Source of the DNA: a virus
Taxonomy: Duplodnaviria; Heunggongvirae; Uroviricota; Caudoviricetes
DNA length: 34,818 nucleotides
Virus record (IMG/VR): IMGVR_UViG_3300042519_001716
Strand: one strand, 5' to 3'
The translations under genes were made by a program, and so were the position numbers. Shown here one piece after another: positions 12,184 to 28,091 of this stretch. Numbering within the stretch: position 1 is the stretch's first letter; each line of letters begins with the position of its first letter. The notes beneath the pieces are model-generated. The model worked only from the letters and a program-made list of their open reading frames with translations. It searched no databases and was not told where the DNA came from.

Positions 12184-12747
12184 TTAAATTAAAGACCTAG
12201 GTTTGTCAATATTAATTCTATATTTCTGGCCATATGGGAACCCAACGTTCTTAACACCATCAATATTAAGGTAATCCACAACCCTTTGAAACCCATTATT
12301 ATAATATAATTCTTCGTATGATATTGTGAAATAATTTTTATTAATATAATTTTCTTTAATACCTTCTTTTATGTCATAAAGATAATCTAACCCTACGGTT
12401 TGTTTTTTTTTCGACTTTTCTTCATAAACCCATGGCCTGTCCCAGTTATTTGTTGCAACAGCGTTTTCCCAGGAGAGTGATTGTTCATCTTCATTTTCTC
12501 TATAAAGAATAATGATTTTGTCTGATATATCTAATAAATCGGTATAATTTATTTCTTTTGAATAAATTTCCTTTATTAATAGATGTTCAGTTGTAAATTC
12601 CCAGTTTTGGGGTGGTATTTTGTTTTTATACCATTCTGACTTAATATTATACGGTTCATATAATACTGTGAAGTCCTTTCTTATGAAAAACCAATTGGCC
12701 AAATTTGTAGATCCACTTCTAGGTTCACATAGTATTGTAATAATCAT
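12184..12747 (-). CDS. Sulfotransferase-like protein (P-loop PAPS-binding fold, Stf0-like)
   Basis: ILCEPRSGSTNL 5'-PSB loop, EPY motif, ILYREN, ISYEELY; ends RSLI. Confidence 0.7.
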   Translation of the reverse strand: MIITILCEPRSGSTNLANWFFIRKDFTVLYEPYNIKSEWYKNKIPPQNWEFTTEHLLIKEIYSKEINYTDLLDISDKIIILYRENEDEQSLSWENAVATNNWDRPWVYEEKSKKKQTVGLDYLYDIKEGIKENYINKNYFTISYEELYYNNGFQRVVDYLNIDGVKNVGFPYGQKYRINIDKPRSLI

Positions 12748-12748
12748 T

Positions 12749-13156
12749 TTATATTAATTTATATTCATGTATATGGTTCTTCCCATAATTACTAAACAAC
12801 TCCTCATTTAATGAAATATCGGCCAACGCTTTAAATGTGAAACAATCAACCGTTCCGTTTTCAAAATTTGTATTAATATAATGATTTGTACAACCATATA
12901 CACACCCATTTGTAAGTTTAACTTTATACGGGTGGCCACGCATTGCTCTTATAAAATCTTGTAATTCCTCTGAAAAGGTATCAAACTCAGCTTTAGAAAT
13001 TTCATATATGCCCGTTTTTCCTTGCCAAAATTCAAAAACGGTTTCACCCTTTTTAATATCTCTAATTGCAAAAACACCAACACCATGTACCCCACTTGGT
13101 TTAATTCTAGTCATTACACAATTTTTTAAAAAATCATATGGTGTTATATAATTCAC
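12749..13156 (-). CDS. SET-domain protein (putative lysine methyltransferase)
   Basis: IKPSGVHGVGVFAIRDIKKGE and ALADISLNEELFSNYG match SET N- and C-terminal motifs; the NHS motif is diverged (NHYINTN); GTG start; ends YKLI. Confidence 0.75.
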   Translation of the reverse strand: MNYITPYDFLKNCVMTRIKPSGVHGVGVFAIRDIKKGETVFEFWQGKTGIYEISKAEFDTFSEELQDFIRAMRGHPYKVKLTNGCVYGCTNHYINTNFENGTVDCFTFKALADISLNEELFSNYGKNHIHEYKLI

Positions 13157-13161
13157 AATAA

Positions 13162-13659
13162 TTAAATTAGTTTTTTATTAAATTCACTTTTATTCCCTTT
13201 TCGTAATCTTTTATCACTATTGACATCATATATGTCTTCATAATAAGTAATTGGAGTGTTAAGTTTATATGATAATTCATTCAAATCCTTATTCCATTTT
13301 ATTACATCATTATAACATAAATCAAATAACTTAGGTGGAACCTCTTCGTAATAATATTGATGATTTGAATTGTAATTTTTATTTTTTGAGAAGTAGGTTT
13401 GATATGCGTGGGATTCTACACATTGTAATATGTTTTTTCTAGATAATAATATTACCTCATCGAATTCTTTACTTAATTCAAAATTATTTGAGTGATGACA
13501 TATGATCGTTTTAAGAACAATATTTTTTTCACCATTATATTTAAATCTACCGCTATTATCGAACGGTTCAAATATAGGAGTAAAGCCCTTTTCTTTTGCT
13601 AATTTATATAATAATGAAGTTGAGCCGGTTCTAGGTAATGCAACGATTAATATACTCAT
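13162..13659 (-). CDS. Sulfotransferase-like protein
   Basis: IVALPRTGSTSL, FEPF, LLSRKN, ITYYEDIY; paralog of 12184-12747; ends KKLI. Confidence 0.7.
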   Translation of the reverse strand: MSILIVALPRTGSTSLLYKLAKEKGFTPIFEPFDNSGRFKYNGEKNIVLKTIICHHSNNFELSKEFDEVILLSRKNILQCVESHAYQTYFSKNKNYNSNHQYYYEEVPPKLFDLCYNDVIKWNKDLNELSYKLNTPITYYEDIYDVNSDKRLRKGNKSEFNKKLI

Positions 13660-14225
13660 ATCAATGTTTTTTCAACTTTACGTTTTGGCCGGTCAGAATT
13701 GATGTTATCCATCCAAACATTTAACGCATATCGCGTACCATTTGTGACTGGTAGAACTCCATGATATGTTTTAAATCCATTAAAAGAAATCATATCGCCA
13801 ATTTTTAAATCATAAGTTGTAATGCCATCCATTTTATTAAAATGAATATCTGGAGTGTTACTATCACTTAATGCGAATTGACCACCTTCAAACCCATTTG
13901 ATAACACAATTACTGATGTTAACTCACTATCCGCATCTTTATGTAAATTTAGATACCTACCATTGTAATAAGATGTTAAACTAATGAGAAAATTCTTTAG
14001 ATTAAAATTATCAAAATCAAACCATAAATTAAAATTTCCAGTTTTATAATTATTCATTAATGAAGTAATTATTTGTTCCTTAAACCCCTCATCATGTATG
14101 CGTCTACAATCCCATAATTCATTTGGGCGATATGAAAAAGGCTTACCGTGTTGAATACAAAAATTAATTATATCAGCACATTCGGTTTCTGTAAAAACAT
14201 TATTATTTATTGAATAATTTATCAT
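13656..14225 (-). CDS. 2OG-Fe(II) oxygenase (prolyl-hydroxylase-like)
   Basis: LHKD (HxD), FEGGQF, YHGVLPVTNGTRYALNVW. Start shortened to MINYS (14225). Ends KTLI. Confidence 0.85.
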   Translation of the reverse strand: MINYSINNNVFTETECADIINFCIQHGKPFSYRPNELWDCRRIHDEGFKEQIITSLMNNYKTGNFNLWFDFDNFNLKNFLISLTSYYNGRYLNLHKDADSELTSVIVLSNGFEGGQFALSDSNTPDIHFNKMDGITTYDLKIGDMISFNGFKTYHGVLPVTNGTRYALNVWMDNINSDRPKRKVEKTLI

Positions 14226-14260
14226 ATATAAATAAATGAACAAACATTCATCTTTTTAAA

Positions 14261-14407
14261 TTATGATAAGTGTTTGTCTTTTATAGCAGTAACAACAGCT
14301 TGGAATGCAGTTGATATTTTTGTCTTTATGTCAGCTGGTAATGAACTAATTATTGGTTTAATAACTGTTGCGGGTCTTTCTTGTCTAATTTTAGGGGTCT
14401 TTGCCAT
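14261..14407 (-). CDS. Unannotated 48-aa basic peptide MAKTPKIRQERPATVIKPIISSLPADIKTKISTAFQAVVTAIKDKHLS
   Basis: Manual translation. ATG 35 nt after the Hint-gene stop, behind an A/T-rich leader; fills the gap to the next gene; falls below the ORF-track length cutoff. Confidence 0.7.
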   Translation of the reverse strand: MAKTPKIRQERPATVIKPIISSLPADIKTKISTAFQAVVTAIKDKHLS

Positions 14408-14442
14408 GATATATTTTTATTTTATATTTTTTATTAAAATTA

Positions 14443-15942
14443 TTAAGGAACAAATTTTTGTTGTCCGCCACCACCCCATGCACAAGTTGGGCAATAATAT
14501 GAATAACAATAATTACCACAATAAGACCAACTACACCAACAACCGTTGTGCATTACACTAAAATCTCCATCCCCAATATCAACTAAGAATAAGTCAGATG
14601 GCGCAAAATCAAGTGTATAAATTGTTTTAGTTTCATATATCATTTCTAAACCACTAATTAGAACCGTTGTTAATTCATTAGTGTTTGAATCGGTTATTAC
14701 CAATTTATCTCCAACATATAAACTATTTACCTTTTCAAATCTGGTTGCTGTTGAATCTTTTTCTTCAATATAATATACACACGCGGGGGTGTCTGACCAA
14801 CTTCTACCATCTTCTAATGTTATTTGTATCATTACCGTTTCTACTTGTGTTGACACCATGTTCTGTAAACCAGACGATACCTGTGTTAATGTGTCGTTTG
14901 ATTGTTGAAGTGTACTATCCCAACCATATGTATTAATTTCTGGTGTAAAAGATGCCGCTTCGTTTTCATTTGAATCTACAAAATTAATAGATCGGACATA
15001 GTCACCTAATTGTATTGTGCTAACATTTGTTAATGTACCATCATAATTCAAAATGTTTGATTCGTCATCTGTGTGATAATCATTTCCCGATCCTTTACCC
15101 ACCTCTTTAGTGATATATTTGTATCTACTTTTTTGGTTTAATTTTTTTGTACCGGAAACGAATTCGGTAGCAGCAAACGAAACTGGGATTACCGCAGATT
15201 GTGTGTACCCACCCATATTAATAATGTCCAAATTCGAACCGTATATAATATCAATTCCTCTTATAATTGAATACTTACCATCTACCAAGTTATCTTCTGA
15301 AAATATAAATTCTTGAACTAAGAAATTATTTTCAGCAGAATTTATTGTGTCAACTAATTCGGTATTATTTGAAACCGCGTATAGCGCTGGATATTTCATT
15401 TTATCATATTGTGGATAACGATATTTTATCAACACATTTGGATTTGTAGTATCACTATAGTCAACATCATCCAAAGTATTTACATTTAACGTATCCGAGA
15501 TACAATGTGTTTTGGGAATATGTTGTGAATCTTTCATTAAATTAAAAAATTCAAACTTATCGGCGCAGTATGTTTCGTCTACTAATGCTGTGGTATCAAA
15601 AGCCTGTCTTAAAATAAATTTATTATTGGCGTCTTCAATAAATGGTACCGTTACTGAATTCATCGGTACTATATGGTCAGTATATGATATGTTATTTTCT
15701 GCACATTTTATTTGTAATATTTGTCTAAATCTATGTGTTTGATTTATAGGGCTATACGCGACGCCTTCTGTCCATATATAATGAAATTCAGTAATATTAT
15801 TACTATTTAATACATCAAATAATGCATCATAATCTAATAAATCCGCTCCATCATTATATATTGTGGTGTTTGTGTTTATCTCCAAAAATTTAACATTATC
15901 ATCTTTTTGTAAAAAATCACTACCAATTATTGTTGCTTTCAT
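14443..15942 (-). CDS. Fusion: circularly permuted ATP-grasp-like domain + Hint (intein-like) domain + 33-aa Cys/Trp/Tyr-rich C-terminal peptide
   Basis: ATP-grasp-like motifs IIGSDFL..KFLEINTN, DKFEFF..IPKT, VLIK, FLVQEFI, IIRG. Hint block A-like SNILNYDGTLTNVSTIQLGDYVRS and block F/G-like IYTLDF..DLFLV..GDFSVMHN. Tail GCWCSWSYCGNYCYSYYCPTCAWGGGGQQKFVP. Confidence 0.7.
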   Translation of the reverse strand: MKATIIGSDFLQKDDNVKFLEINTNTTIYNDGADLLDYDALFDVLNSNNITEFHYIWTEGVAYSPINQTHRFRQILQIKCAENNISYTDHIVPMNSVTVPFIEDANNKFILRQAFDTTALVDETYCADKFEFFNLMKDSQHIPKTHCISDTLNVNTLDDVDYSDTTNPNVLIKYRYPQYDKMKYPALYAVSNNTELVDTINSAENNFLVQEFIFSEDNLVDGKYSIIRGIDIIYGSNLDIINMGGYTQSAVIPVSFAATEFVSGTKKLNQKSRYKYITKEVGKGSGNDYHTDDESNILNYDGTLTNVSTIQLGDYVRSINFVDSNENEAASFTPEINTYGWDSTLQQSNDTLTQVSSGLQNMVSTQVETVMIQITLEDGRSWSDTPACVYYIEEKDSTATRFEKVNSLYVGDKLVITDSNTNELTTVLISGLEMIYETKTIYTLDFAPSDLFLVDIGDGDFSVMHNGCWCSWSYCGNYCYSYYCPTCAWGGGGQQKFVP

Positions 15943-15975
15943 AAAATTTTATTTCTCATTTTCATTTATTGTGTC

Positions 15976-15995
15976 TTAGTTATAAATATAACTAA
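15976..15995. promoter_or_regulatory. Perfect 9-bp inverted repeat TTAGTTATA-AA-TATAACTAA overlapping the TATATTTATA motif
   Basis: Read directly from sequence; lies 33 nt upstream of the ATP-grasp-Hint start, in the largest intergenic gap of the window. Confidence 0.5.
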
Positions 15996-16039
15996 CCACC
16001 ATTTTAAACTAAGTATATAGATATATAGATATATATCGT

Positions 16040-16342
16040 CTAAATTAAAGTGTTCTCACTTTTATCTTCAAGTGGTTTTAAATAGCCTGAATCAATTTCG
16101 CCCCAAAATTTTTCTGGGCACGCATTATAATCTGTTGAAAAAACTTTCTTATTTAGGGGACATCCACATTTATTACAAAAAACACTCCATTTTAACCCTT
16201 TTATCATTTCTTTTCTATGGTCACAGCCTAAACAAAAATCCAGTCTTAGTTTAGCCAATTCTTCTTGTCTGATAGTTGGATTTAAGGAAATCTTCCAAGC
16301 CTCAAATATTTTTTTATAATCAATCTTAGGGGTATTAATCAT
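16040..16342 (-). CDS. Small Cys-rich metal-binding protein (CxxC...CxxCGC...CP..W)
   Basis: CLGC, CNKCGC and CPEKFW motifs; ends NTLI. Confidence 0.65.
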   Translation of the reverse strand: MINTPKIDYKKIFEAWKISLNPTIRQEELAKLRLDFCLGCDHRKEMIKGLKWSVFCNKCGCPLNKKVFSTDYNACPEKFWGEIDSGYLKPLEDKSENTLI

Positions 16343-17067
16343 ATTAATGTTTTATTATTTTTTTGGATATCGTAATAATCATAAATATCGTTATATCTCC
16401 GTATGAAATCGTCATTCAATTTTAAATTACAATCAAAATGTTGACTCCCATTTGATTTTTCCATTTTAAATGGTTTACCAGTTTTATTAGACACCCATTC
16501 TTCCAATTCTTCAAAATTTCCAAATTCGAACCATTTTATTTTTTGATTATTGTTGTGCCAATGTGATATAGGTCTAAATAAAATTAATAACATATTTTTC
16601 ATATAATCATTAAAATATTTTTCAATTTTGTTTTTTTTTGCAAATTCAAACATTAATAATTCTTGAGATTTTATGGAAATTAAATCTAAATCTTTAAAAA
16701 ATAATATGTCCTCTAAACTTAATTTTTTTAATATGTTAGTTAATTCCTTTGGGTATAACATATAAGTTAAATCAATTATATGTTTCCATAATGAAATAAA
16801 TCTTTCATGTTTATTTCGTCTAATTGAAATTATATCATATTCATCACCAAATTTCATAGTTAAATCAACTAGTCTTTCGTGACTATGAACAATATTGTCG
16901 GCCAAATCTTCATTGGTTAGAGATAAATCTATTTTATCTTGGTAACTATCTATTAATAGTTGGTCAAAGTGTTTTATTATAAATCCACTTCGTATGCAGG
17001 ACATATAAAAAGATGTTGATGCGCATCTTGGTAATGATATAAATAAAAATTTATTTTCCACTAACAT
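16339..17067 (-). CDS. Sulfotransferase family 2-like protein
   Basis: FLFISLPRCASTSF, SIRRNKHERFISLW, FEFGNFEEL; ends KTLI. Confidence 0.7.
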   Translation of the reverse strand: MLVENKFLFISLPRCASTSFYMSCIRSGFIIKHFDQLLIDSYQDKIDLSLTNEDLADNIVHSHERLVDLTMKFGDEYDIISIRRNKHERFISLWKHIIDLTYMLYPKELTNILKKLSLEDILFFKDLDLISIKSQELLMFEFAKKNKIEKYFNDYMKNMLLILFRPISHWHNNNQKIKWFEFGNFEELEEWVSNKTGKPFKMEKSNGSQHFDCNLKLNDDFIRRYNDIYDYYDIQKNNKTLI

Positions 17068-17705
17068 TATATTAACGATTTTTGATTTTTAATATAATCA
17101 AACCCCACATTACCGGCCATAACAATTCTGTCCAGTGTTGAATTCGGTGCAGTATTTGGTGAGTGTGGAACATCGGCTTCCATTATGATTAAATCATCTT
17201 CTTCTGGTCTGATCCAATACTCCTTATCATCTTTACCTAAAAAATACAATACACCATCCTCATCATTCATTACGTCTGGCATTTGAATATAATAAACATA
17301 GGTATAATGTGGGGTGAAGAGTTTATTTGATTTATTTATTTCAGTATGTATATGGTGTTTTTTATCTCCATAAAAATTCCCTTGTACCGGATTTTTTGAA
17401 CGAACAACATTAACCCACGCATCCGTATTAATTTTATTATAATTTATGTTTTTTTCATTATAGATTTCTTTACACTTATCAACACCAACCTGAACTATTT
17501 CGTCTAATTTTGTTTCTATTTTAAAATTACCAATAAAATTTAAATTTTCGTTCCATTCTTTTTTATAACCAAACCCATCTGTTTTAACATCAGGTAAAGA
17601 TTCAATAACAGAATATGCTTCTTCTAAAAATAATGGTTTATCTTCTGTGCGATTTAGTTTTGTTTTCCATATATAAGTGGCTTCATCAAAATATATTTTT
17701 TCCAT
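17067..17705 (-). CDS. Putative 2OG-Fe(II) oxygenase (HxH-type cupin fold)
   Basis: AWVNV..HHIH..YTYVYYI..GVLYF..PEEDDLIIM..HSP..RIVMAGNV pattern; ends KSLI. Confidence 0.6.
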   Translation of the reverse strand: MEKIYFDEATYIWKTKLNRTEDKPLFLEEAYSVIESLPDVKTDGFGYKKEWNENLNFIGNFKIETKLDEIVQVGVDKCKEIYNEKNINYNKINTDAWVNVVRSKNPVQGNFYGDKKHHIHTEINKSNKLFTPHYTYVYYIQMPDVMNDEDGVLYFLGKDDKEYWIRPEEDDLIIMEADVPHSPNTAPNSTLDRIVMAGNVGFDYIKNQKSLI

Positions 17706-17706
17706 A

Positions 17707-18324
17707 TTATATTAAATTATTTTGGTTATTATTTTTGGCAACTAAATCAAAATTAATCACATATCTATCAGTTATAGTTGGGTATTCTCCGTAGTGATGA
17801 ATATTACCATCAAATATAACGGCTCTTCCTTTTTTTGGTTGTATTTTATTTAGTGTTTCAAACCCATCAACATTAATACTTTTAAAATTGTGTTGAAGAA
17901 ATTCCCCTGTATTTCCCATTTTATTATTTAAAAAAACGGTATTACCATCGGTGTTATTTATATAATAAACTATAGCAATATGATCCACACTCATATCAAC
18001 ATGAATTAAATTTTTAAAATCATAACTTTCACTTATGGGTGTTGTCCAGTTTATTTTACACCTATAATCTCTTTCAAATTTCATATTAAGTTTATTGAGT
18101 AAATTTAACTTTATGGAATTTATTATATTAATAATATCGGTATTATCAATGTCAACACCTTTTAGTACATTTGCGGGTAATTTTAATGATTCGGTTCCAC
18201 CATAAAGCCCTGTAATATTATGTTGGTAATTCCATTTTAGGTTTGAAATTTTTACATAGTTTTCTAATTTAGTTTGGTCTGATTCTGGAATTATATTATC
18301 AAATACTTGATACCCGTTTATCAT
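17707..18324 (-). CDS. 2OG-Fe(II) oxygenase-like protein
   Basis: IHVD, VYYINNTDGNTVF, PKKGRAVIFDGNIHH, RYVINF; ends NNLI. Confidence 0.75.
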   Translation of the reverse strand: MINGYQVFDNIIPESDQTKLENYVKISNLKWNYQHNITGLYGGTESLKLPANVLKGVDIDNTDIINIINSIKLNLLNKLNMKFERDYRCKINWTTPISESYDFKNLIHVDMSVDHIAIVYYINNTDGNTVFLNNKMGNTGEFLQHNFKSINVDGFETLNKIQPKKGRAVIFDGNIHHYGEYPTITDRYVINFDLVAKNNNQNNLI

Positions 18325-18884
18325 ATTAAATTTTGTTTTTTTGAATCGGTTTTAATTAATCTTATCCAATTTACTAATGAATAACGCACCCCTTCAACTA
18401 TAGGTACCACTCTATGAAGTAACCTTGAATTAAAAATATACAACGTGCCTATTTTATTCTTTATTGGCACAATCTCCCCTTTACTATTTTTAATCTCTAA
18501 TATTCCACCGATATAGTTATCATTTAACTGAATTACTATTGATGCAAATCTATCTCTATATAATAAATCGGTACTATCAACATGCCAATCAAAGTATTCA
18601 TTTTCTTTATATTCGGTGAATTGATAATCACCCAAACCAGTAACCTCCATTCCGTTAATATTGAACGACTCCCTTAATTTGTTTATTAATCTTTCATTTA
18701 AAAATCCCAAATCAGATACCCAAGCAATAGACGATTTCCTACGTATATTTTCAATATTTTCACGATTTTTATTATTATATACTTTAGCTGATTCTAATGT
18801 TAATTCACTCTTACATTTCTTTAAAATGATGTCACATTCTTCAGGTGATAGAAAGTTTTCAAATATGTCTATATTATCAATCAT
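18321..18884 (-). CDS. 2OG-Fe(II) oxygenase (P4H/PKHD-like)
   Basis: YQFTEY..FDWHVD, YIGGILEI, LHRVVPIVEGVRYSLVNW; ends QNLI. Confidence 0.88.
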   Translation of the reverse strand: MIDNIDIFENFLSPEECDIILKKCKSELTLESAKVYNNKNRENIENIRRKSSIAWVSDLGFLNERLINKLRESFNINGMEVTGLGDYQFTEYKENEYFDWHVDSTDLLYRDRFASIVIQLNDNYIGGILEIKNSKGEIVPIKNKIGTLYIFNSRLLHRVVPIVEGVRYSLVNWIRLIKTDSKKQNLI

Positions 18885-19369
18885 ATTAGTGTTTTTTCTT
18901 TTTTTCGTTTTTTATTATAAAACGAAATCAAACTAAAACGTTCGTTTTTTGTTATTTTAAGGACTCGATGCCTAACTTTATTATCGATAAATAAACTTAC
19001 ATTTCTTATAGGTTTAATCTTAAGTAAGTTTTTATTTTCAATATATTCAAATTCTCCTCCGTCAAATGTGTTATTTATGTATGTTATAATTGTTAAATCA
19101 CACGCATCATTATGATATTCATCATCAATATTTGTATTAACAGTTACTTTGTTAACCCATAAACCAAATAACTCATATTCATCGTTTATTAAGTCTTCAC
19201 AATTTTTTTGGTATTCTAATAAATCTTTTTCAATATCTAATATTTTTCTAATGTAGTAGTTATGCTTGTTTTTAATACTATGAGTTTCCGTTTCTACGAA
19301 ATTTATACACACCGAGTCCAAAAAAAATAGTTCTTCTTCAGATAAGAGATTTTCATATGTGCTAACCAT
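18881..19369 (-). CDS. 2OG-Fe(II) oxygenase
   Basis: YHND, FDGGEFEY, HRVLKITKNERFSL; ends KTLI. Confidence 0.8.
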   Translation of the reverse strand: MVSTYENLLSEEELFFLDSVCINFVETETHSIKNKHNYYIRKILDIEKDLLEYQKNCEDLINDEYELFGLWVNKVTVNTNIDDEYHNDACDLTIITYINNTFDGGEFEYIENKNLLKIKPIRNVSLFIDNKVRHRVLKITKNERFSLISFYNKKRKKEKTLI

Positions 19370-19378
19370 AACATTTTA

Positions 19379-19588
19379 CTATTTTTTAAGCCCATACTTA
19401 ATCCATCTATACCATACTCTTTCATGTATATAATATTGGATGGGTTTATAGATCAATTCCGCCACCCCAAATGCAGCACCAAATTTAATTGATCCACTTA
19501 TTAACCACATCAATAAGAATCCAATTAAGGTACTTACAATTCGATATGAGATGGTTTTAGCAATGTGTCTCTTCTTTTCTACTATCAT
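19379..19588 (-). CDS. DUF2061-like small membrane protein
   Basis: RHIAKTISYRIVST...YYIHERVW signature; adjacent to CysC, a commonly seen linkage. Confidence 0.8.
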   Translation of the reverse strand: MIVEKKRHIAKTISYRIVSTLIGFLLMWLISGSIKFGAAFGVAELIYKPIQYYIHERVWYRWIKYGLKK

Positions 19589-19968
19589 TATCCCTTTGTT
19601 TGATCATATTTAATTTCACCGTCGGGTGTCATGTGGCCAGTTCTAATTGCTGTACCACTAATCGTTGCTATCTCAGTTGGTGGTTCGTGGTATATTACAT
19701 CATAACCAACCCCTCTACCATAATTAATGCTCTCAATATCAGGAATAATTGATATGTTAATTCTTTGTGAATTTTCTCTAAAGAAAGGTTCTTCACTTAG
19801 ATCCATCATAACTTGCTGTGCGGTCTTAGGGTTATTTTCATCCGTTGGCACGTTCCTAATTGCAACCCACACATCTTTTCCTTTATCTAATTGTTGGTTA
19901 ATAAGCCATTCGTGGCCCTTATGCCAATTTTGCCAACGCCCCACATACATTGCGTATTTTTTACTCAT
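19588..19968 (-). CDS. Cytidylyltransferase-like (HIGH-motif) nucleotidyltransferase
   Basis: YVGRWQNWHKGH (HxGH) and ISGTAIR (KMSKS-equivalent) motifs. Confidence 0.8.
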   Translation of the reverse strand: MSKKYAMYVGRWQNWHKGHEWLINQQLDKGKDVWVAIRNVPTDENNPKTAQQVMMDLSEEPFFRENSQRINISIIPDIESINYGRGVGYDVIYHEPPTEIATISGTAIRTGHMTPDGEIKYDQTKG

Positions 19969-20399: not shown

Positions 20400-20405
20400 A
20401 ATGAT

Positions 20406-20434
20406 AATATACCTAAAACAAGTTGAAAAGTCAA
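20406..20434 (-). promoter_or_regulatory. Sigma70-like promoter TTGACT-N17-TATATT
   Basis: -35 at 20429-20434, -10 at 20406-20411; fills the 38-nt gap before cysC. Confidence 0.65.
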
Positions 20435-20437
20435 TTT

Positions 20438-21661
20438 TTAATCAATAAAAATATCACCTAACCATGGGCATATTTCCTTATAATCGGTTTTATTAATTTC
20501 GTCAAATCTCCTTAAGGTTTCCGGTAGTGAAATAGTAACATATTTCTTCTTATCTAATAGGTGGCTATAAACTTCCTCATCCTCAGTGTTTCTTAAATAT
20601 TTAACAAATTCAATCAACGTATATCTACAAAGTGATGTTAAATTGTTTATGTTGTTTTCATAAAGTTCTATTAACGCTTGTTTCATGCCACCCTTACAAA
20701 TTCCAGGTGCAAAATAAAAAGGTTGAGTCACAGTATGAAACCTAATGTGATCTGAATGGAGGTAATTTTCTTCAACAAACTTTATGAAATCAAAAGAATG
20801 GTACATGTTTATTGTTGAAATAGTATAATCAATAGAAACTTTGAAATTGTCGTTGGTTTCTTTAAACTTAATTAGCGTTTCCAGATTTTTAAAGAATTTT
20901 TCAGAATTAAATCCTGGTCTTTGATATTCACCAATTTTACCATACCCATCACATGAACAAGAAATATCTACAGTTTTAAAACGTTTAAGTTTATCAAGTA
21001 TGTCAATACCTTTGTATGTTAGTGTGGATAAGTTTGTATTGATTAATATATAAACCTTTTTAGCCTGTTCATCACTGAATCTATCTAACAAGGTAAATGT
21101 TGTTGGTGTTATAAATGGTTCACCACCAGCTAAATAAACTTTACGAATAGAATCAATATTTTCTTCTGAAAACTTATCAAGAGCGTCGTCACCCGCTGTT
21201 AAGTACTTGGTATTGATGGTATCATATTCTGGTTGATTTTGAACATAACCCCAATACTCAAACCAGGTTGATGATGACCCATGAAAACACATTCTACATT
21301 TAAAGTTACAATGATTAGAAAGTCTCAAATCTGTGTAAACAATTTTGTTTACACTATAGTCTTCATTATATAGTGATGGGTCCGCTATTTCTTCTCTAAA
21401 CTCAATGTTACTATGCTCTTTGTGTCTATTTTTATAAACAAAACATTCCGCACATTCAGATGGCGCAATATTAGATAACATCTCTTTTCTAATACGTTTA
21501 TATGGTTCACTATTAATTGCTTCATCAACAGAATTGAAATCCTTGAAATGAATATTCTCTTTAAATGGAGAAGCCACACAACAAGGTGATAGTGTGCCAG
21601 ATGCCCCAACATAAATTGAACCAAAGGGTAAATAACAAAATTTCTCTGAGATGGTATTCAT
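20438..21661 (-). CDS. Radical SAM protein with N-terminal SPASM/twitch domain (array member 6)
   Basis: CYLPF..SPCC..CAEC at the N-terminus; RLSNHCNFKCRMC; AGGEPF. Confidence 0.9.
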   Translation of the reverse strand: MNTISEKFCYLPFGSIYVGASGTLSPCCVASPFKENIHFKDFNSVDEAINSEPYKRIRKEMLSNIAPSECAECFVYKNRHKEHSNIEFREEIADPSLYNEDYSVNKIVYTDLRLSNHCNFKCRMCFHGSSSTWFEYWGYVQNQPEYDTINTKYLTAGDDALDKFSEENIDSIRKVYLAGGEPFITPTTFTLLDRFSDEQAKKVYILINTNLSTLTYKGIDILDKLKRFKTVDISCSCDGYGKIGEYQRPGFNSEKFFKNLETLIKFKETNDNFKVSIDYTISTINMYHSFDFIKFVEENYLHSDHIRFHTVTQPFYFAPGICKGGMKQALIELYENNINNLTSLCRYTLIEFVKYLRNTEDEEVYSHLLDKKKYVTISLPETLRRFDEINKTDYKEICPWLGDIFID

Positions 21662-22959
21662 TACAATAATTTTACATTATCATCTTTTGGTAATTCAATG
21701 ATAACATTTGGATCGATAAAATCTCTAAACTCAGTAAACACAGAAAAGAAATCATCACCTCTGAATGTGTCAACCATGTCTGTCATTTTTAAAAACTTTT
21801 GGAACATTTCTTCGTCTCTTTCTTGATTTAACAAGTCTATTACAAATTCAAATTGTCCTATATCTCGTTGTGCTTCACTGTTATCCGCTATGTTATTTTT
21901 TATCCAAATTATAAGGTTATTATACAATATTCTAAGAACCTCTTTATGTCTTTCAGGTAGCATTTTTATCTGAAGGTGTTCTGGATGTGTCAATAAATTA
22001 ATATGAATTTTACCAGGAAGTAAGTAGCCATTTTCTATCCAATTTTTATATAAATCAATTATGGTATAGCTATTCATTATGTTAATTGTTGGTACAATTC
22101 CAAAAAAAGTATCTGGTAGTTCTCTCAAAAGTGTTTTTCTATTCTCAACTATTTCAGACCATTTTGATCCACTTCTAAGATATTGGCCTCTCTCTTCAAA
22201 ACCATCTATACTTGCTGTTATCTCAACGGCTTTGAACTTCTTCCACATCTCAATTATATTATAATCTTTATAATATAATTTTGTGAAATTGGTTGTAACC
22301 CACACTGTTATATTTTTAGCATAGTCATTGTCTATGCAGTATTGTAATATTTGATAATGTTTATCTTGTGTTAATGGTTCGCCACCAGCAAAAAATAATG
22401 ACTTAACATGCTTTAATTGGCTTAAAATAAAATTAAACTCATCATCATCAACCGACATACTATATGGTTGACCATAATCTTTAAAATTATTGAAGCCTAA
22501 CGCTTTATACTCTTTATATAATGATGATGAAAAACCGGGATTACAAATCCTACATTTTAAATTACATTTATTATCAAAACGTAGATCTAAGTGTTTAAAT
22601 TGTATTATTTTTAATGAAAAATCTTCATTTGTGTTTTCCACAATGTTTTCTATTTCATCTTCAAACTGTTTGTTTAAATTAAATCTGTAACTATCAACTT
22701 GGCTCTTCCCTTTTGAAACCTCTTCTCTATACCAGCAAATTTGACACTCGTTTATCTTCTCACCATTCCACAATCTTTTTCTAACATCCTTTGCAACATC
22801 AGAATTATACATTTCATTTAATGGAACGCCTTGCTTAAGTTCTCCGAAAACTCGTTCTTGTTTATATAAACAACAAGGTACAACATTTCCAAATGTACTT
22901 AAATGTGAAGCAATCCATGGAGCAACACAAAAGGTTTCTTCGTTATAATTTTTTTCCAT
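21661..22959 (-). CDS. Radical SAM protein with N-terminal SPASM/twitch domain (member 5; ends KLL)
   Basis: CVAPW..VPCC..CQIC; RFDNKCNLKCRIC; AGGEPL. Confidence 0.9.
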   Translation of the reverse strand: MEKNYNEETFCVAPWIASHLSTFGNVVPCCLYKQERVFGELKQGVPLNEMYNSDVAKDVRKRLWNGEKINECQICWYREEVSKGKSQVDSYRFNLNKQFEDEIENIVENTNEDFSLKIIQFKHLDLRFDNKCNLKCRICNPGFSSSLYKEYKALGFNNFKDYGQPYSMSVDDDEFNFILSQLKHVKSLFFAGGEPLTQDKHYQILQYCIDNDYAKNITVWVTTNFTKLYYKDYNIIEMWKKFKAVEITASIDGFEERGQYLRSGSKWSEIVENRKTLLRELPDTFFGIVPTINIMNSYTIIDLYKNWIENGYLLPGKIHINLLTHPEHLQIKMLPERHKEVLRILYNNLIIWIKNNIADNSEAQRDIGQFEFVIDLLNQERDEEMFQKFLKMTDMVDTFRGDDFFSVFTEFRDFIDPNVIIELPKDDNVKLL

Positions 22960-24432
22960 TTAATTTAATTCATTTTTTTGTCTGGCATTATTTCTAGCCA
23001 TAATGTCTGGTTTATACTCACCAAGCTCCCAACCTTCCATACCACCACCAGACAATTTAACATCTGGTATATAGTTGTCTATTTGAATAGAATCGTACCA
23101 ATCAACTAACATTGGAAATGTTTTTCTAAAGTCTTTGTTCCTTCTGATATCATATTGTACATAAAAACTTTTGAAATCATGGAAGTGTTTATCTTTATCG
23201 AACTCAGCTCTAGCGTGTCCTTGATCAACAACATCAATGTAATCAATTACTCTTTGAGTTTGTGTTATCTCATGTTCTAATAATAAACCAGAATCTCTGT
23301 TCTTATCTAACCAAACTTGAATTTTATTTTTAGCTTCAATCTTAATATTATCTGGTAAATTTAATGGTGACATAAATCCTGGCCATCTTAAGAAGTTAAG
23401 ATCCATTGTTGGTTTATTAGGGCCATACTTTTTCTTTAACTCCAACATATCATCCATGAACTCAGTAATAGACATTAATGATAAACCAGTCACAGTCATC
23501 ATGATTACAATTTGTCTAATGTTCGCTTCTTCAATCATTCTAACAACATTACCTCTCCATTTTGGATAAATCAAACCATCTCTAAGATATTCAGCATGAT
23601 CACCATATGATTCACAACTTGTATAGATATCATATGATTGAATATCTAATTCGTGTGTTGTTCTAATTAATTTATCGATCAATTCATCTTTAACACCTAA
23701 ATTAGAATTTATTGATAGATTCAACTTAGGATATGATTGGCCCTTAATTTTATCTAGGAATTTCCAAAAGTTATGACTCGTTGATGGTTCCCCGCCAGTG
23801 ATTCTTAATGTTTGTAAATCTTTTGATAAGTCTGGCCACCATTCTAGGAATGCCGTAACGTATGGGTTATCACCAATAAATTTATTTTCAGGATCTGCCC
23901 ATGAACCATTTTGTTGATATGCACCGGCAGTTAATGTTTTAAACTTTTGATATGGACCATGTTCGTCAATATCTCTACCCCAAGTTGTTGAATAACTTGG
24001 ATTACAATATGAACAAGCAAAATTACAACTTCTATCAAATGATAATTCAACAGTTCTTAAATTAACATCAGCATCCCATGGTAGATCTTTTAACATGTCA
24101 ATATCTTCATGTTTATATTCCATGCTTCTATATACTCTATCTGATATGTTATTTCTACCAATATCTTCTACCTTCCAACAATAAGAACATTCGGCTGGTC
24201 TAATACCTGATAACATCATTCTTCTCATTTTCTTTTTATGTGAAGTATTATGTAATGCCGATGGGTTTGTTTTAATTTCCTCCAAATCAATTGGGTGAGG
24301 TAATGGTAGGAAACATGACCTACTATACCCACTACCTAAATCAATAGTTGCGTTATACCACTTGGCAGGACAGAAGCTACAGCTAACTGAATCTAATTTT
24401 TCTTCTTTAAATTTTAATAGTCTTTCTGACAT
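22960..24432 (-). CDS. Radical SAM protein with N-terminal twitch-like domain (member 4)
   Basis: CSFCPAKW..SC..CSYCW; FDRSCNFACSYC; TGGEP. Confidence 0.9.
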   Translation of the reverse strand: MSERLLKFKEEKLDSVSCSFCPAKWYNATIDLGSGYSRSCFLPLPHPIDLEEIKTNPSALHNTSHKKKMRRMMLSGIRPAECSYCWKVEDIGRNNISDRVYRSMEYKHEDIDMLKDLPWDADVNLRTVELSFDRSCNFACSYCNPSYSTTWGRDIDEHGPYQKFKTLTAGAYQQNGSWADPENKFIGDNPYVTAFLEWWPDLSKDLQTLRITGGEPSTSHNFWKFLDKIKGQSYPKLNLSINSNLGVKDELIDKLIRTTHELDIQSYDIYTSCESYGDHAEYLRDGLIYPKWRGNVVRMIEEANIRQIVIMMTVTGLSLMSITEFMDDMLELKKKYGPNKPTMDLNFLRWPGFMSPLNLPDNIKIEAKNKIQVWLDKNRDSGLLLEHEITQTQRVIDYIDVVDQGHARAEFDKDKHFHDFKSFYVQYDIRRNKDFRKTFPMLVDWYDSIQIDNYIPDVKLSGGGMEGWELGEYKPDIMARNNARQKNELN

Positions 24433-24433
24433 C

Positions 24434-25708
24434 TTATATTAATTTTGTTGTTTTTGTAATATTATATATTTCTTCTAAATCCGCAAATGTATCAGCAAAA
24501 GATTCATTCCTTAAAATGTCTAATGCTAATGTTTGTCTCTTAAATTCTTGCCAATCGCCTTGTGTACCCTCAACAGGTAATTTTAATGTGTTTATAACTT
24601 TATGTGCTTGCCTCATTACATCCCTTCTATATTGTTTTTCAGAATCATCTATTGTTGTATCATCATTAATTTGTAAAATCCTAAGATTATATTCGGATTC
24701 AAGTTTTTCTAAAATAAGTTTTTTACACTTCTCTGGCATATATCCAATATGTAAGTGTCTAGGGTTGTAAACAAAAGCTATCATTAATTTTAAATGATTC
24801 TCAATAACAAAATCAACCATCTCAAAAACATAAAGAACATTTAGCATTGATATAGTACAACACACCTCAAAGATTATTTTATGGTCTGGAATTAATTTAA
24901 CTTTATTTTGCCAAATATTAATATTTTCACTAACCACATCCCATTTACCAAAATGTCTTAAATAGTTGAATCTTTTACCAACACCATCAATACTAAAACC
25001 AATTCTACACTGTTCAAATGAGCTTAAAATATCAATATATTTCTCATTTATAATTGTGCCGTTTGTATTAAAACTCATTTGTTGTGTTTTAGAATATCCT
25101 AACTTAACGGACATTTCTAAAATCTCCCATTGCTTTTTCATCAACATTGGTTCACCACCATATATGTCTAAACTTCTAACTTCAGGAAGTATACTCATTA
25201 ATTCAGCCCAAACAATACTATTGTCTCTAAATGCTTTTGAATATTTATCTACATAATAGTCTAATCTTTCTTCGGTCACATCGGTTTCTGTTACATGATG
25301 AAAGTCTTTCCATTTTGATGATGCAGATATATGACATATTCTACATGCGAGATTACATGTGTTACCAAGATTTAATTCTAAAAAAAATAAATCAGAATCT
25401 TTTCTTTCTGGATATAATTCAAGAGTAGTCTTATATGTTTCATTATCTCTTTCTCGTTTGCTAACAAATCCAGCATCTTCTGCTGACCAACAAACAACAC
25501 AAGCCGGATGCCTAATATCATTTTTAAAATCATCTAACATTTTCATTCTAGTTGGGCTTTTTAGCCCTTCTTCAATTGAATGTGTGCTAGCTAACATTTC
25601 ATCACCATTTTCATCTTTAAATGGGTTATTAAACGTGTGACAACACGCAAAATAGCCCCCAGATGTTGCTATTCTAAAACCGTTTGTTAGATTTTTACAC
25701 TCAATCAT
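24434..25708 (-). CDS. Radical SAM protein with N-terminal twitch-like domain (member 3; ends KLI)
   Basis: CKNL..ACC..CVVCW; LGNTCNLACRIC; YGGEPM. Confidence 0.9.
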   Translation of the reverse strand: MIECKNLTNGFRIATSGGYFACCHTFNNPFKDENGDEMLASTHSIEEGLKSPTRMKMLDDFKNDIRHPACVVCWSAEDAGFVSKRERDNETYKTTLELYPERKDSDLFFLELNLGNTCNLACRICHISASSKWKDFHHVTETDVTEERLDYYVDKYSKAFRDNSIVWAELMSILPEVRSLDIYGGEPMLMKKQWEILEMSVKLGYSKTQQMSFNTNGTIINEKYIDILSSFEQCRIGFSIDGVGKRFNYLRHFGKWDVVSENINIWQNKVKLIPDHKIIFEVCCTISMLNVLYVFEMVDFVIENHLKLMIAFVYNPRHLHIGYMPEKCKKLILEKLESEYNLRILQINDDTTIDDSEKQYRRDVMRQAHKVINTLKLPVEGTQGDWQEFKRQTLALDILRNESFADTFADLEEIYNITKTTKLI

Positions 25709-26727
25709 TATTCAATTGTTAAATTATGTCTAATATTATTTGAAACTGGTAATCTATGGTATATTTCAACCATATCTTTATAATTAGGATGTTCAGGATT
25801 ACCAACATCAACAATTTTAAATGTTTCACTCTGGAATGTTCCCCAATTAACTACCCTATTAAAAAATATCTGCCAATTAATGTGTGTGTCATCGAATATC
25901 TCTTCTGACATTTTATAAAACATTTCCATTTCTTTATAGTTTGAGTTTTGAACAACAAACGACATGGTAACATATTCTAGATTGGGTAATGTTGCAATAA
26001 ATTTAAGATTGCTTTGAATGTCTTCCCATTTGCCACCTAAGCGTGTATAATTTTCATACGTGTCTTTTGTTGCTGCATCAACAGATATCTCAGCAGACTT
26101 AATAAATCTATGCACATTTGTCATTTTAGACCAGTTAGATTCGTTCCAAAGAGTACCGTTGGTATGTAAGTGTATACTTTTTAAATTCGGGTACAGGCTG
26201 GGCTTAAATGTCATCAACCACTTTTTAAATGTTCTTGAAAAAAAGGGATCACCAGATCCGGTACATTCAATATGTTCAAGTCCTTCAGATAATTGTTCTT
26301 CAATACTTTGTAATATTAATTCGGTTCTTGTTCTTTCTTCACCACTATAATTTATTTTTTCTAAACGACAACTAGGGCACTGTAGGTTACAGCTTTGATC
26401 AAAATTAAATTTAACACTTTTGGGTACCGGGTCTTTAAACTGATCGATTTTTCTTAAGAACTCTTCCTTTGGCATAAAGCCTTCGCTTTTACCTTCTTTT
26501 AACCCCGTTAATTTAGGACATCTAGCTTCAATACAATATTTGTAACTACCATCTATCATACTTTCTCTGACCTTATTTGCTAGATCAGAAACCCAAGTGT
26601 TTTTAATATCTATTGGATCACCTAAATCAACAGGTAACCAATTTGGACAACACATATATGTTTTATAATCAAAGAATTCGGTGAACTCAAATGGTTGTAA
26701 ACAAACAAAATCTTTTTTATCTAACAT
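25708..26727 (-). CDS. Radical SAM protein with N-terminal twitch-like domain (member 2)
   Basis: CLQPF..MCC..C....CP; FDQSCNLQCPSC; GSGDPF replaces GGEP. Confidence 0.88.
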   Translation of the reverse strand: MLDKKDFVCLQPFEFTEFFDYKTYMCCPNWLPVDLGDPIDIKNTWVSDLANKVRESMIDGSYKYCIEARCPKLTGLKEGKSEGFMPKEEFLRKIDQFKDPVPKSVKFNFDQSCNLQCPSCRLEKINYSGEERTRTELILQSIEEQLSEGLEHIECTGSGDPFFSRTFKKWLMTFKPSLYPNLKSIHLHTNGTLWNESNWSKMTNVHRFIKSAEISVDAATKDTYENYTRLGGKWEDIQSNLKFIATLPNLEYVTMSFVVQNSNYKEMEMFYKMSEEIFDDTHINWQIFFNRVVNWGTFQSETFKIVDVGNPEHPNYKDMVEIYHRLPVSNNIRHNLTIE

Positions 26728-26732
26728 AAATT

Positions 26733-28091
26733 TTAGTTTTCGGTTGTTTTAGGTATTTCATTAGGTGGGTCAGGTAAACTTCTATCTCTAAAGAAAAACT
26801 CTTCAGTCTCATAGTTTTTAACTGTTGCTCTAACCTCTTTAAACCAGTCTTTATATTGCGGATTAACATCTAAGAAATTTTCATTTCTTCTAACATCTAA
26901 TATTGTTGTAACTCTGAGTAGTTCTCTTCTGCTGATTTGTAATTGTAATAAATCTATATTAATTTCAGAATAAAGAAAATGAACCCAGGCACCGATTGCT
27001 GACCCAATAGCGTTTTTGTATGCGCCTTCTGGTAAGTTCTTGTGATATGATTCTAACTTATTCATTAATTCTTCTTTTAGATCTTCAGGTAAGATTCTTA
27101 TATCATAACATTGTGGATCTGTTAAAAAATTATTGAAGATAATATATGAAGGTTTGATTCCTAATTTAACGATTGTATCAAATAAGTCAGTAACATGAAA
27201 GACGTTTAGTATACTAATTGTTGGGGAAACAAAAACCTCAACACCCAACTTGAGTGCAGTTTCAATATTTTTATAGACGTTTTCCCAAACAGTGCCATGT
27301 CTAGCTAATTCTGCAACAGGTCCAACAGCATCTAACGACGCAAATAATTGCACTCTACCTTTTGGATTTTTAGCACAATTAATAAATGGTTCCCATAGTT
27401 TATTTAAATCCCATTTTTTAAATTGTATGTGACTAAAATTTGTATTATATCTTAAAATTACATCTGTTCTACCTGCAGCAATTAACTTTTCTAAAATAAT
27501 ATAATGTTCATCCATGATCAGTGGTTCACCGCCAGCAAAATAAATCTCTTGGACATCACCAATAAATTTATCTACATAGTTCATGATATCTTCTCTGGAT
27601 TCACTTCTGAAATTCATTAACCCATTATTGGATTGACCATGAATAGCCATCTCATCATCCGCCCATTTACTACTAGCAAACGTTCCACACATTCTGCATT
27701 TAAAATTACAAATGTTAGAGAATCTAAAGTCCCAATACTTTAAAGAAAAATCATTATTGTGGCCAGTTTCTCTATTTGTGTTTGCAATCATTTTATCAAC
27801 ATCAGCACCAAACTTTTCAGTCATGTTAACTCTAGGACTAACCGCACCGTTATCTTCCATCATGTAACATCTATTACAAAGCATAGGTTTTTCTCCCTTT
27901 AACATTTTTTTACGAATGTTCTTCATAACAAATCCGTTCCACACTTCCTCTAAGGTATCTTCTTTGGTGTTACCGATTGGCATATCATGTGGGGTCATGC
28001 AACAAGGTTGTATATTACCATTTGGTTGTATCATTAAATGCGTCCATGGTAAGATACAGAAAGTATCACTTACGGGTGTTTTTTTGCTCAT
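26733..28091 (-). CDS. Radical SAM protein with N-terminal SPASM/twitch domain (member 1)
   Basis: CILPWTH..QPCC..CNRC; RFSNICNFKCRMC; AGGEPL. Confidence 0.9.
   Translation of the reverse strand: MSKKTPVSDTFCILPWTHLMIQPNGNIQPCCMTPHDMPIGNTKEDTLEEVWNGFVMKNIRKKMLKGEKPMLCNRCYMMEDNGAVSPRVNMTEKFGADVDKMIANTNRETGHNNDFSLKYWDFRFSNICNFKCRMCGTFASSKWADDEMAIHGQSNNGLMNFRSESREDIMNYVDKFIGDVQEIYFAGGEPLIMDEHYIILEKLIAAGRTDVILRYNTNFSHIQFKKWDLNKLWEPFINCAKNPKGRVQLFASLDAVGPVAELARHGTVWENVYKNIETALKLGVEVFVSPTISILNVFHVTDLFDTIVKLGIKPSYIIFNNFLTDPQCYDIRILPEDLKEELMNKLESYHKNLPEGAYKNAIGSAIGAWVHFLYSEINIDLLQLQISRRELLRVTTILDVRRNENFLDVNPQYKDWFKEVRATVKNYETEEFFFRDRSLPDPPNEIPKTTEN

Follow-up and report, generated by a model that had tools for sequence, protein, structure and literature searches.

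A shared C-terminal Leu-Ile tag on unrelated tailoring enzymes around an ATP-grasp-Hint fusion in uncultured aquatic phages

Why should a row of unrelated enzymes in a phage genome end in the same two residues, and why should two genes in the middle of the row be spared? The question is raised by the IMG/VR virus record IMGVR_UViG_3300042519_001716, a stretch of 34,818 nucleotides from a member of the Caudoviricetes (the window hereafter), in which an island of genes at 12184-19369 encodes candidate oxygenases, sulfotransferases and other enzymes ending in Leu-Ile. In its centre lie a protein that joins an ATP-grasp domain to a Hint domain and an open reading frame (ORF) of 48 amino acids (aa). 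All long ORFs of the window are on the minus strand, and its G+C content is about 30%. An IMG/VR contig of 251 kilobases (kb), here called G001 and estimated to be 75% complete, matches the window region at 91% nucleotide identity, and the closest cultured relatives of the genes flanking the island are found in T4-like cyanophages at about 30% identity; the source is therefore a large uncultured aquatic phage, distant from T4-like cyanophages. We read the island as this phage's form of a system for tailoring peptides or proteins that is conserved and evolves fast in uncultured aquatic phages, a reading to which we assign a probability of about 0.5, and the island probably builds and releases a modified peptide.

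The shared ending itself is far from what composition predicts. Leu-Ile stands at the C-terminus of 11 of the 37 window proteins, where 0.22 are expected (binomial P=2e-16). Ten of these eleven tagged genes form the run 12184-19369, and the eleventh is a radical S-adenosylmethionine (SAM) gene at 24434-25708. The run is broken solely by two untagged ORFs, just as the initial annotation had claimed, and both are central to what follows:

14443-15942, minus strand: ATP-grasp-Hint fusion protein, untagged.
15097-15942, minus strand: ATP-grasp domain of the fusion (aa 1-282), of YgiC, glutathionylspermidine-synthetase or glutathione-synthetase type by model and VIA.
14545-15084, minus strand: Hint domain of the fusion (aa 287-466), ending His465-Asn466, by model, VIA, Foldseek and profile.
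14446-14544, minus strand: tail of 33 aa after His-Asn, a candidate released peptide; it is disordered, holds six invariant Cys and many Trp, Tyr and Pro residues, and ends in Lys followed by hydrophobic residues.
14261-14407, minus strand: untagged 48-aa ORF; its N-terminal half is basic, and its C-terminal helix is amphipathic and ends K-x-K-H-L.

Is this arrangement a peculiarity of one genome? Related loci were gathered in two sets of 80 each. Set 1, the clade of the window, was fetched with the fusion protein as query, and set 2, a distant or sister clade, with family members that lack the tail and share 22-28% identity with the window protein; ORFs in all 160 loci were called by simple longest-ORF selection, and the gene contexts of the distant homologues were drawn only from IMG/VR contigs. 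The synteny comparison that had been proposed as a check came out strongly positive, for in the 80 window-clade and the 80 distant-clade loci alike the fusion and the small ORF occur together with the tag and with the same enzyme families. Among the 1,658 ORFs of set 1, 426 end in Leu-Ile and 724 in any combination of Leu and Ile, with the consensus K-x-x-K-[ST]-L-I-COOH, or by position K at -6, K at -3, T, S, K or N at -2, L or I at -1, and I or L at the end; the distant clade has such [LI][LI] ends on 474 of 2,135 called ORFs (ORFs of at least 60 aa being tallied), and its logo is identical. The tag is also concentrated around the fusion. Within 4 kb of it, 76-100% of set 1 genes are tagged, against at most 13% at 6-9 kb (at least 7 kb on the downstream side); at -10 to -11 kb, the upstream edge, the share rises again to 19-24%. 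In the distant clade the tagged fraction falls from 0.73 at +1 kb to 0.28 at +6 kb.

The division between tagged and untagged genes follows gene families. In set 1 the enzyme families are tagged at 85-100%: the main cluster of 2-oxoglutarate (2OG) oxygenases in 163 of 173 cases, the family of the window gene at 16339 in 78/78, that of the genes at 12184 and 13162 in 75/75, that of 16040 in 66/74 (present in 73 loci), the oxygenase family of 17067 in 60/67, tryptophan halogenase (PF04820) in 44/44, a GDSL-like family in 65/76 and a DUF6734-like family in 21/21. The radical SAM family of the gene ending at 25708 is tagged in 19 of its 23 members. Five other families never carry the tag, namely the fusion protein (0/81), the 48-aa ORF (0/75), a protein with an HxGH motif (0/38), DUF2061 (0/37) and adenosine 5'-phosphosulfate (APS) kinase (0/28). 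In the distant clade the oxygenases (128/163), the 25708-type radical SAM enzymes (48/59) and the sulfotransferase-like proteins (39/47) are tagged, and the nucleotidyltransferase and DUF2061 are untagged.

A shared ending could in principle be a feature of the DNA, as a site of translational coupling, a junction of cassette recombination, or a matter of chance in an AT-rich genome. Many junctions indeed overlap with the next gene as ATGA or TAATG, and these overlaps explain why the final Ile uses ATA in 0.76 of cases against 0.45 in gene bodies, an excess confined to that final Ile. The Leu codons at -1, however, are used as they are in gene bodies (TTA.64/.62, TTG.17/.14, CTA.12/.11), and departures of the last two codons from TTA-ATA are all synonymous in the window and otherwise either synonymous or an exchange of Leu and Ile. 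Moreover, for 134 tagged genes the next 15 nucleotides downstream contain no start codon, and the tag is found on unlinked genes as well. From the codon usage and the absence of nearby downstream starts it follows that the tag is selected as protein and not as DNA, and a DNA-level motif or translational coupling is refuted by codon usage and stop/start geometry. Chance is rejected as the origin both by the composition of the 37 window proteins and by a position-specific score, for which the null rate, taken from internal 7-mers scoring as high as the tag, is 0.15% of samples. Any origin of the ending at the level of DNA or by chance is thus hardly credible. Among the window-G001 orthologue pairs the tag is retained in 10 of 11, the eleventh ending -IL, and in the AlphaFold model of the 16339 family the last nine residues or so (about 234-242) are unstructured and of lower confidence, with the aligned fold stopping near residue 237; the tag is thus predicted to sit on a flexible tail outside the enzyme fold.

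How far does the tag extend beyond the island? By the position-specific score, 13 of 264 proteins are tagged in G001, nine of them in the island, and 11 of 389 in the 100% complete genome G003, seven of them in the island. Eight tagged genes lie outside the islands. Pfam places four of them in a family, and each of the four is of tailoring type: G001 has a PF11397 N-acetylglucosamine (GlcNAc) transferase and a DUF6734 protein, G003 a GDSL hydrolase and a B12-binding radical SAM enzyme. For the remaining four, Pfam gives nothing above the cut-off. The PF11397 'GlcNAc' glycosyltransferase (G001 27078-28361, plus strand; E=4e-70) lies about 190 kb from the island and carries a strong tag, Q-T-L-I. 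PF11397 is also the family of the Skp1 hydroxyproline GlcNAc transferase, which suggests that hydroxyproline is glycosylated after the island oxygenases have acted. Conversely, among cultured cyanophages and pelagiphages, HTVC008M and P-SSM2 have arrays of tryptophan halogenases and oxygenases of the same families without the tag, the fusion or the small partner ORF, and no match to cultured phages was obtained with the island (megablast) or with the fusion and the 16339 protein (tblastn). The tag therefore marks a functional set around two untagged genes, the fusion and the small ORF. The earlier suggestion that tagged proteins are the enzymes and untagged ones the substrate or scaffold fits the family counts, the unlinked tagged enzymes and the untagged, fusion-free cultured phages alike.

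What, then, is the protein in the centre? The AlphaFold model of the fusion has a predicted local distance difference test score (pLDDT) of 88 and a predicted template-modelling score of 0.84, with residues 469-499 disordered (pLDDT about 30), and together with two fold searches it confirms the ATP-grasp-Hint-peptide architecture that had been read from the letters. With VIA, the ATP-grasp domain reaches Z 10.0 to YgiC-ADP, 9.2 to glutathionylspermidine synthetase (GspS) and 8.6-9.1 to other chains of GspS or glutathione-synthetase type, and it has no sequence-family match in Pfam, PHROGs or PDB. Over 58 diverse homologues, D9, E21, N23, R112 and D122 are invariant (58/58) and K173 and R228 nearly so; since its catalytic residues are invariant, the ligase looks active. 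In the related ligase Cp1B the acyl-phosphate is made by the residues of an R-x-D...E-x-N motif (PMC12568646), and D9...E21-x-N23 of the fusion appears to match the metal and acyl-phosphate motif D...E-x-N, the equivalence of residues being taken from alignment ranges only.

The second domain belongs to the Hint fold, with Z 16.1 in VIA to the NpuDnaB intein (root-mean-square deviation 2.0, 139 residues aligned), 15.4 to Hedgehog and 15-16 to a range that includes bacterial intein-like (BIL) domains, a Foldseek E of about 1e-7, and a family profile that matches the KlbA intein at E=6e-5. Asn466, which aligns with the terminal intein Asn, is kept in 58/58 homologues and His465 in 56/58. The position of the intein Cys1, located from six structures, is His290 in this protein and H, G, I, K, S or T across the family, and the residue at +1 after Asn466 is Gly here and variable elsewhere, so the nucleophile pair of a splicing intein is not present. 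With the Cys1 equivalent lost and His-Asn kept, the Hint domain would be able to cleave only at its own C-terminus. Judged on its model and conserved residues, the fusion looks like an active ATP-grasp ligase joined to a C-terminally cleaving Hint domain.

What follows the Hint domain differs from phage to phage. The fusion family comprises 628 close proteins by word-indexed search and 279 clusters at 50% identity by exhaustive search, and no fusion relative has a precomputed Pfam domain; two single distant homologues used as locus queries, P0224 and P0137, retrieved no loci. In the window clade the frame of six Cys is invariant while the Trp, Tyr, Pro, Asn and His positions between them vary, and the C-terminus is Lys followed by an aliphatic residue; the wider family shows a hypervariable tail. 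Trp, Tyr and Pro, in which the tail of the window clade is rich, and the Lys near its end are residue types on which halogenases, prolyl hydroxylases, sulfotransferases and SET enzymes act. In longer members there are further, complete Hint domains that extend from Cys1 to His-Asn, and Pfam finds Intein_splicing, Hint and PT-HINT in 13-15 members, PT-HINT being in the extra Hint domains of 13. In five members (P0159, P0162, P0165, P0182 and P0198) the Cys-rich segment is followed by Peptidase_S74, a self-cleaving intramolecular-chaperone domain that is usually found at the ends of phage tail fibres and spikes. With these added Hint or Peptidase_S74 domains, the variable segment is repeatedly bracketed by autoproteolytic modules.

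The small ORF is the more constant companion. It stands directly after the fusion in 74 of the 80 loci of set 1, in the locus L099 and in nearly all distant-clade loci. In the sister clade it has 43-51 aa and ends K-x-K-H-[L/S], and it can be aligned across both clades. A Rosetta-stone search for longer proteins containing it found none, which is weak evidence, and a look-up in the ESM Atlas gave no usable match.

Since the closest structures of the ATP-grasp domain are peptide-spermidine ligases and glutathione-type synthetases (PMC12568646), and since its catalytic residues are invariant, one may ask whether the tag is a chemical handle, the ligase phosphorylating the terminal Ile carboxylate and joining the enzymes covalently to an amine. 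The conserved terminal Lys of the fusion or a Lys of the small protein could provide the amine, as nearly all architectures of the fusion have Lys as the last residue, or as the last but one before an aliphatic residue, and the small protein is rich in Lys. This proposal is nevertheless purely inferential; one or a few acceptor amines would have to serve about ten competing enzymes, no covalent conjugate of this kind is known for the ligase branch, and the same facts fit a ligase acting in cis on the C-terminus of the fusion itself. We consider it highly unlikely.

The genes around the core are as follows; assignments rest on Pfam unless another source is named, and PSSM stands for the position-specific scoring matrix of the tag.

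12184-12747, minus strand: sulfotransferase-like P-loop protein, last gene of the island with no gene following, tagged R-S-L-I (PSSM 9.3).
12749-13156, minus strand: SET-domain methyltransferase (PF00856, E=1.3e-7), ending K-L-I with a weak extended tag (PSSM 0.4).
13162-13659, minus strand: sulfotransferase-like P-loop protein by family profile, tagged K-K-L-I.
13656-14243, minus strand: fifth 2OG-Fe(II) oxygenase (PF13640, E=2e-8), tagged K-T-L-I (PSSM 13.1).
16040-16342, minus strand: Cys-rich, zinc-ribbon-like protein of 100 aa, directly upstream of the fusion, tagged N-T-L-I; phrog_13558 is its only match.
16339-17067, minus strand: sulfotransferase-fold protein by model and VIA, tagged K-T-L-I.
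17067-17705, 17707-18324, 18321-18884 and 18881-19369, minus strand: four tandem 2OG-Fe(II) oxygenases (PF13640/PF03171), all tagged.
19379-19588, minus strand: DUF2061 membrane protein, untagged.
19588-19968, minus strand: HxGH protein of 126 aa, untagged, only generically nucleotidyltransferase-like.
19965-20399, minus strand: APS kinase (PF01583, NCBIfam), untagged.
20438-28091, minus strand: six radical SAM paralogues with an N-terminal twitch/SPASM domain.

Most of the initial annotation of these genes stood. The five oxygenases are borne out by PF13640/PF03171, three of the five falling below the curated cut-off, and the SET protein by PF00856; the SET gene is not among the 60 largest gene families of set 1, and the one orthologue checked is in G001. 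Three sulfotransferases had also been proposed, and here fold and profile give moderate support. For the modelled 16339 family (pLDDT 89.5), the 13 best VIA neighbours are all sulfotransferases (Z 6.5-8.3), with Foldseek E of at least 0.03; the 12184/13162 family matches a NodH sulfotransferase profile at E=0.006, with Sulfotransfer_3 in 6 of 24 members below the cut-off; and an N-terminal P-R-x-G-S loop is conserved in the sulfotransferase-like proteins. The proposed supply of 3'-phosphoadenosine 5'-phosphosulfate (PAPS) is clear for the APS kinase, while its HxGH neighbour is a candidate ATP sulfurylase that matches only as a generic nucleotidyltransferase-like protein. All six radical SAM enzymes were found, but five of them are lineage-specific, being present in just 2 of 80 set 1 loci; the 25708 family occurs in 21 of 80. 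Two radical SAM proteins scanned in NCBIfam belong to NF033640, a named and uncharacterised subfamily with an N-terminal twitch domain (E down to 1e-112); the protein of 24434-25708 is tagged K-L-I, and that of 21661-22959 ends K-L-L. The block is thus a lineage-specific addition of which only the 25708 family is widespread. The set is enlarged in other phages by tryptophan halogenases, GDSL hydrolases, a B12 radical SAM enzyme and an enzyme that resembles hydroxyproline GlcNAc transferases.

How might such a system work? The fixed core would be the two untagged genes, the ATP-grasp-Hint fusion and its partner of 43-51 aa directly downstream, the fusion deriving from a branch of ligases that activates the carboxylates of peptides or acids as acyl-phosphates. 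Each phage would surround this core with a changeable set of tailoring enzymes, here presumably five oxygenases of prolyl-hydroxylase type, three sulfotransferase-fold proteins, a SET methyltransferase, a zinc-ribbon-like protein and one radical SAM enzyme. The tag would serve the unrelated enzymes as an address or a docking motif, through which they gather at one shared partner, most probably the core pair; because the fusion and the small ORF are the only untagged genes found with the tag in every case, they are the prime candidates for its reader, and this ATP-grasp branch binds peptide C-terminal carboxylates. The likely substrate in the window phage would be the 33-aa segment with six Cys, rich in Trp, Tyr and Pro, behind the Hint domain, which may be hydroxylated, sulfated and methylated while tethered and then freed by cyclisation of Asn. 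An extended version, which is tentative and on balance doubtful, holds that a four-residue C-terminal code, read by the fusion or its 48-aa partner, assembles the enzymes on a self-releasing scaffold, where the ligase activates a carboxylate and the Hint domain frees the product; in the tail-less clade this product would be a modified molecule derived from lysine, and in the window clade a modified and knotted peptide that may be cyclised.

Several observations weigh against this reading of the island. In the sister clade one or two more Hint domains come after the His-Asn of the fusion, either at once or with 1-15 residues between, and His-Asn-Lys is the end of the protein; it has no Cys-rich segment, and its loci have no consistent separate Cys-rich ORF. 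As that clade keeps the tagged enzymes and the small ORF all the same, the tail is not the general substrate that the initial annotation took the Cys-rich peptide to be, and it may not be the substrate in the window phage either. A fusion only 28% identical to that of the window, in locus L099, has a long Cys-rich tail and the same core, with the small ORF next to it and a 16040-type gene directly upstream. What is conserved is accordingly the fusion together with the small ORF and the tagged enzymes; the six-Cys tail counts as one of several payloads. The assignment of 12184, 13162 and 16339 as sulfotransferases is moderate, and none of the three has a Pfam match above threshold. No reader of the tag was identified, a PDZ_2 scan of the 75% complete G001 being without match and tetratricopeptide repeats and other possible readers not having been searched, and the variants LI, LL, II and IL are mixed within every locus, so that there is no co-variation signal by which a co-evolving reader could be found. 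Finally, the observations cover the architecture, the conserved catalytic residues, the selection of the tag as protein and the co-occurrence; docking, modification, the identity of the substrate, cleavage and any ligation by the ATP-grasp domain we infer.

Two more points on this side concern proteolysis. G001 encodes a two-ring ClpC-like AAA+ ATPase with a V-G-F loop for docking of ClpP, and also ClpP; and the tag, a basic run and then two aliphatic residues, resembles the C-terminal signals recognised by ClpX, an unfoldase that recognises the basic and aliphatic C-terminus of MuA. The tag could thus be a degradation signal by which Clp-type unfoldases remove the tailoring enzymes at a set time of infection, its co-occurrence with the fusion reflecting only the shared regulation of one accessory module. 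A signal on a flexible tail would suit such a role, G002 also encodes ClpP and a ClpC-like ATPase with a loop for docking it, G005 has ClpP, and a host Clp could serve. The complete genome G003, however, has the fusion and seven tagged island genes but lacks ClpP, and the sole match there, to a 407-aa AAA_2 protein, is weak; this weakens a phage Clp protease as obligatory reader. The ClpC-like gene is about 50% identical to many unrelated phage or contaminant records and is hence not specific to the system, and the tag is confined to tailoring enzymes and kept off some 250-380 other proteins of G001 and G003, which is unexpected for a general timing degron. We therefore hold this explanation to be unlikely. 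As for the genes themselves, the ClpC-like ATPase of G001 (64872-66890, minus strand, 672 aa) itself ends K-T-K-I-I, and ClpP is at 170509-171201 (plus strand).

Could the enzymes instead be directed to something other than a peptide? The tag may be a sorting signal, much as the peroxisomal targeting signal or the cargo peptides of encapsulins are, to a compartment or to the assembling virion, where the enzymes would modify a structural protein, DNA or a host polymer, with the reader encoded elsewhere and the fusion being a further client or a regulator. It is consistent with this that unlinked genes carry the tag, that the system persists where the fusion lacks the Cys-rich tail, and that the window island adjoins fibre and glycosyltransferase genes. 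The fibre gene at 7179-12107, which had been named as an alternative substrate, adjoins the island in only 4 of 80 loci, though, and is therefore not a conserved partner; as a conserved substrate it is rejected. The oxygenases are, moreover, of prolyl-hydroxylase type and not of families that modify nucleic acids, the scan for PDZ domains in G001 gave none, and among untagged genes, again, the fusion and the small ORF alone are constant companions of the tag. On this evidence sorting seems improbable, and we keep to the tailoring of a peptide or protein on the core pair.

The fibre-like protein (7179-12107, minus strand) has 1642 aa, is rich in Ser and Thr with near-repeats of a unit of the type S-S-S-V-A-T-T-T, and has no Pfam match; its counterpart in G001 has 1438 aa and aligns in part at about 66% identity. 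Just downstream of its gene, at 3771-7159 (minus strand), lie three paralogues in tandem that have about 370 aa and share 60-68% identity; each ends S-S-G-H-C-G-W-R plus 0-1 residue and matches solely phrog_1417, of unknown function.

The island also evolves in its own manner. Between the window and G001, orthologues of the island genes are 54-97% identical (mean 82%) while those of the flanks average 97% (P=5e-5), so the island 12184-19369 is a hypervariable region within an otherwise near-identical pair of genomes, and its faster evolution than the rest of the genome suggests a role in conflict between phage and host or between phage and competitor. A scan of the island for promoters and terminators gave sites not in excess of shuffled controls. 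Upstream of the island in the window, Pfam and NCBIfam find glycosyltransferases and one methyltransferase. Two paralogues of 469 and 475 aa at 28927-31760 (minus strand) combine N- and C-terminal regions of glycosyltransferase family 7 with a Laminin_G_3/ConA-like domain, and are flanked by two proteins like glycosyltransferase family 2 that end V-T-I and T-S-I. At the downstream end of the window, 177-2215 (minus strand) holds a radical SAM protein (1214-2215) and a 355-aa Cys-rich protein without family match, both more than 99% identical in G001, and at 34229-34813 (minus strand) a 194-aa protein has a weak C1q-like match (E=5e-4) and three tandem paralogues in G001.

The Hint domain is closest to Pretoxin-HINT (PF07591) and A-type BIL domains, which share its fold (Z 15-16), the lack of a splicing-competent +1 nucleophile and, in the extra Hint domains of 13 members, PT-HINT itself, as well as a C-terminal His-Asn right before a variable module, so that Asn cyclisation would release the module. 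It differs in that the first Hint domain here lacks an N-terminal Cys or Ser and is phage-encoded, that its partner is an ATP-grasp ligase and not a secretion or trafficking domain, and that the payload is a Cys-rich peptide of 30-60 aa, more Hint domains or only Lys, not a toxin domain. With YgiC/YjfC ligases, GspS, (homo)glutathione synthetases and the fungal Cp1B, the ATP-grasp domain shares the fold over about 200 aligned residues (Z 7.8-10) and the D...E-x-N at its N-terminal end, invariant here, whereas the Arg two residues before the Asp is Gly, Ala or Ser, no sequence-family match exists, and a fusion to Hint is unreported.

C-terminal address motifs include the peroxisomal targeting signal type 1 (S-K-L-COOH), class I PDZ ligands (x-[S/T]-x-hydrophobic-COOH), encapsulin cargo-loading peptides and cellulosomal dockerins. 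In all of them, as here, one short flexible C-terminal element on unrelated enzymes marks a set and not a family; the present tag differs in being viral, in lying in a tailoring island, in its length of about 4-7 residues and in needing a free C-terminus. SCIFF peptides or ranthipeptides are RiPPs, peptides made by the ribosome and modified after translation, with Cys-rich cores, and conopeptides are heavily modified disulfide-rich peptides. The six Cys in about 30 residues, the oxygenases, sulfotransferases, halogenases and radical SAM enzymes nearby, and what may be a variable core beside a conserved 'leader' are common to these and to the phage islands. Unlike in RiPPs, the 'leader' here is a 466-aa two-domain enzyme that would remove itself, and recognition seems to run from enzyme tag to scaffold and not from leader peptide to RiPP recognition element domain. 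There is, in contrast to SCIFF or ranthipeptide systems, no conserved radical SAM/SPASM maturase (2/80 and 21/80 loci), the two enzymes scanned being NF033640 and not SCIFF maturases, and the sister clade has no core peptide, the variable tail with adjacent enzymes being present in the window clade. The nearest published arrangement is the tandem dioxygenase/halogenase arrays of cyanophage Syn9, together with bacterial neighbourhoods containing sulfotransferases and PAPS synthetases (Iyer et al. 2010, PMC2938197). The same enzyme families are clustered in phage genomes there, without mention of a shared tag, an ATP-grasp-Hint protein or a small partner ORF, and a full-text literature search for the combination returned nothing closer and no published description of this layout.

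If the reading holds, a short C-terminal code would gather unrelated enzymes of a virus into one pathway, which would be a new way to organise biosynthesis as well as a portable tag for the assembly of synthetic pathways. If the doubtful extended version holds too, this viral docking code, borne by the enzymes, would reverse the usual leader-peptide logic of RiPPs. The fusion would be a protein that makes its own product, with ligase, self-cutting domain and payload in one chain, much like the engineered intein tools by which peptides are released or cyclised. It would also explain the targets of the tandem oxygenase, halogenase and sulfotransferase arrays of aquatic phages, a question open since 2010 (PMC2938197).

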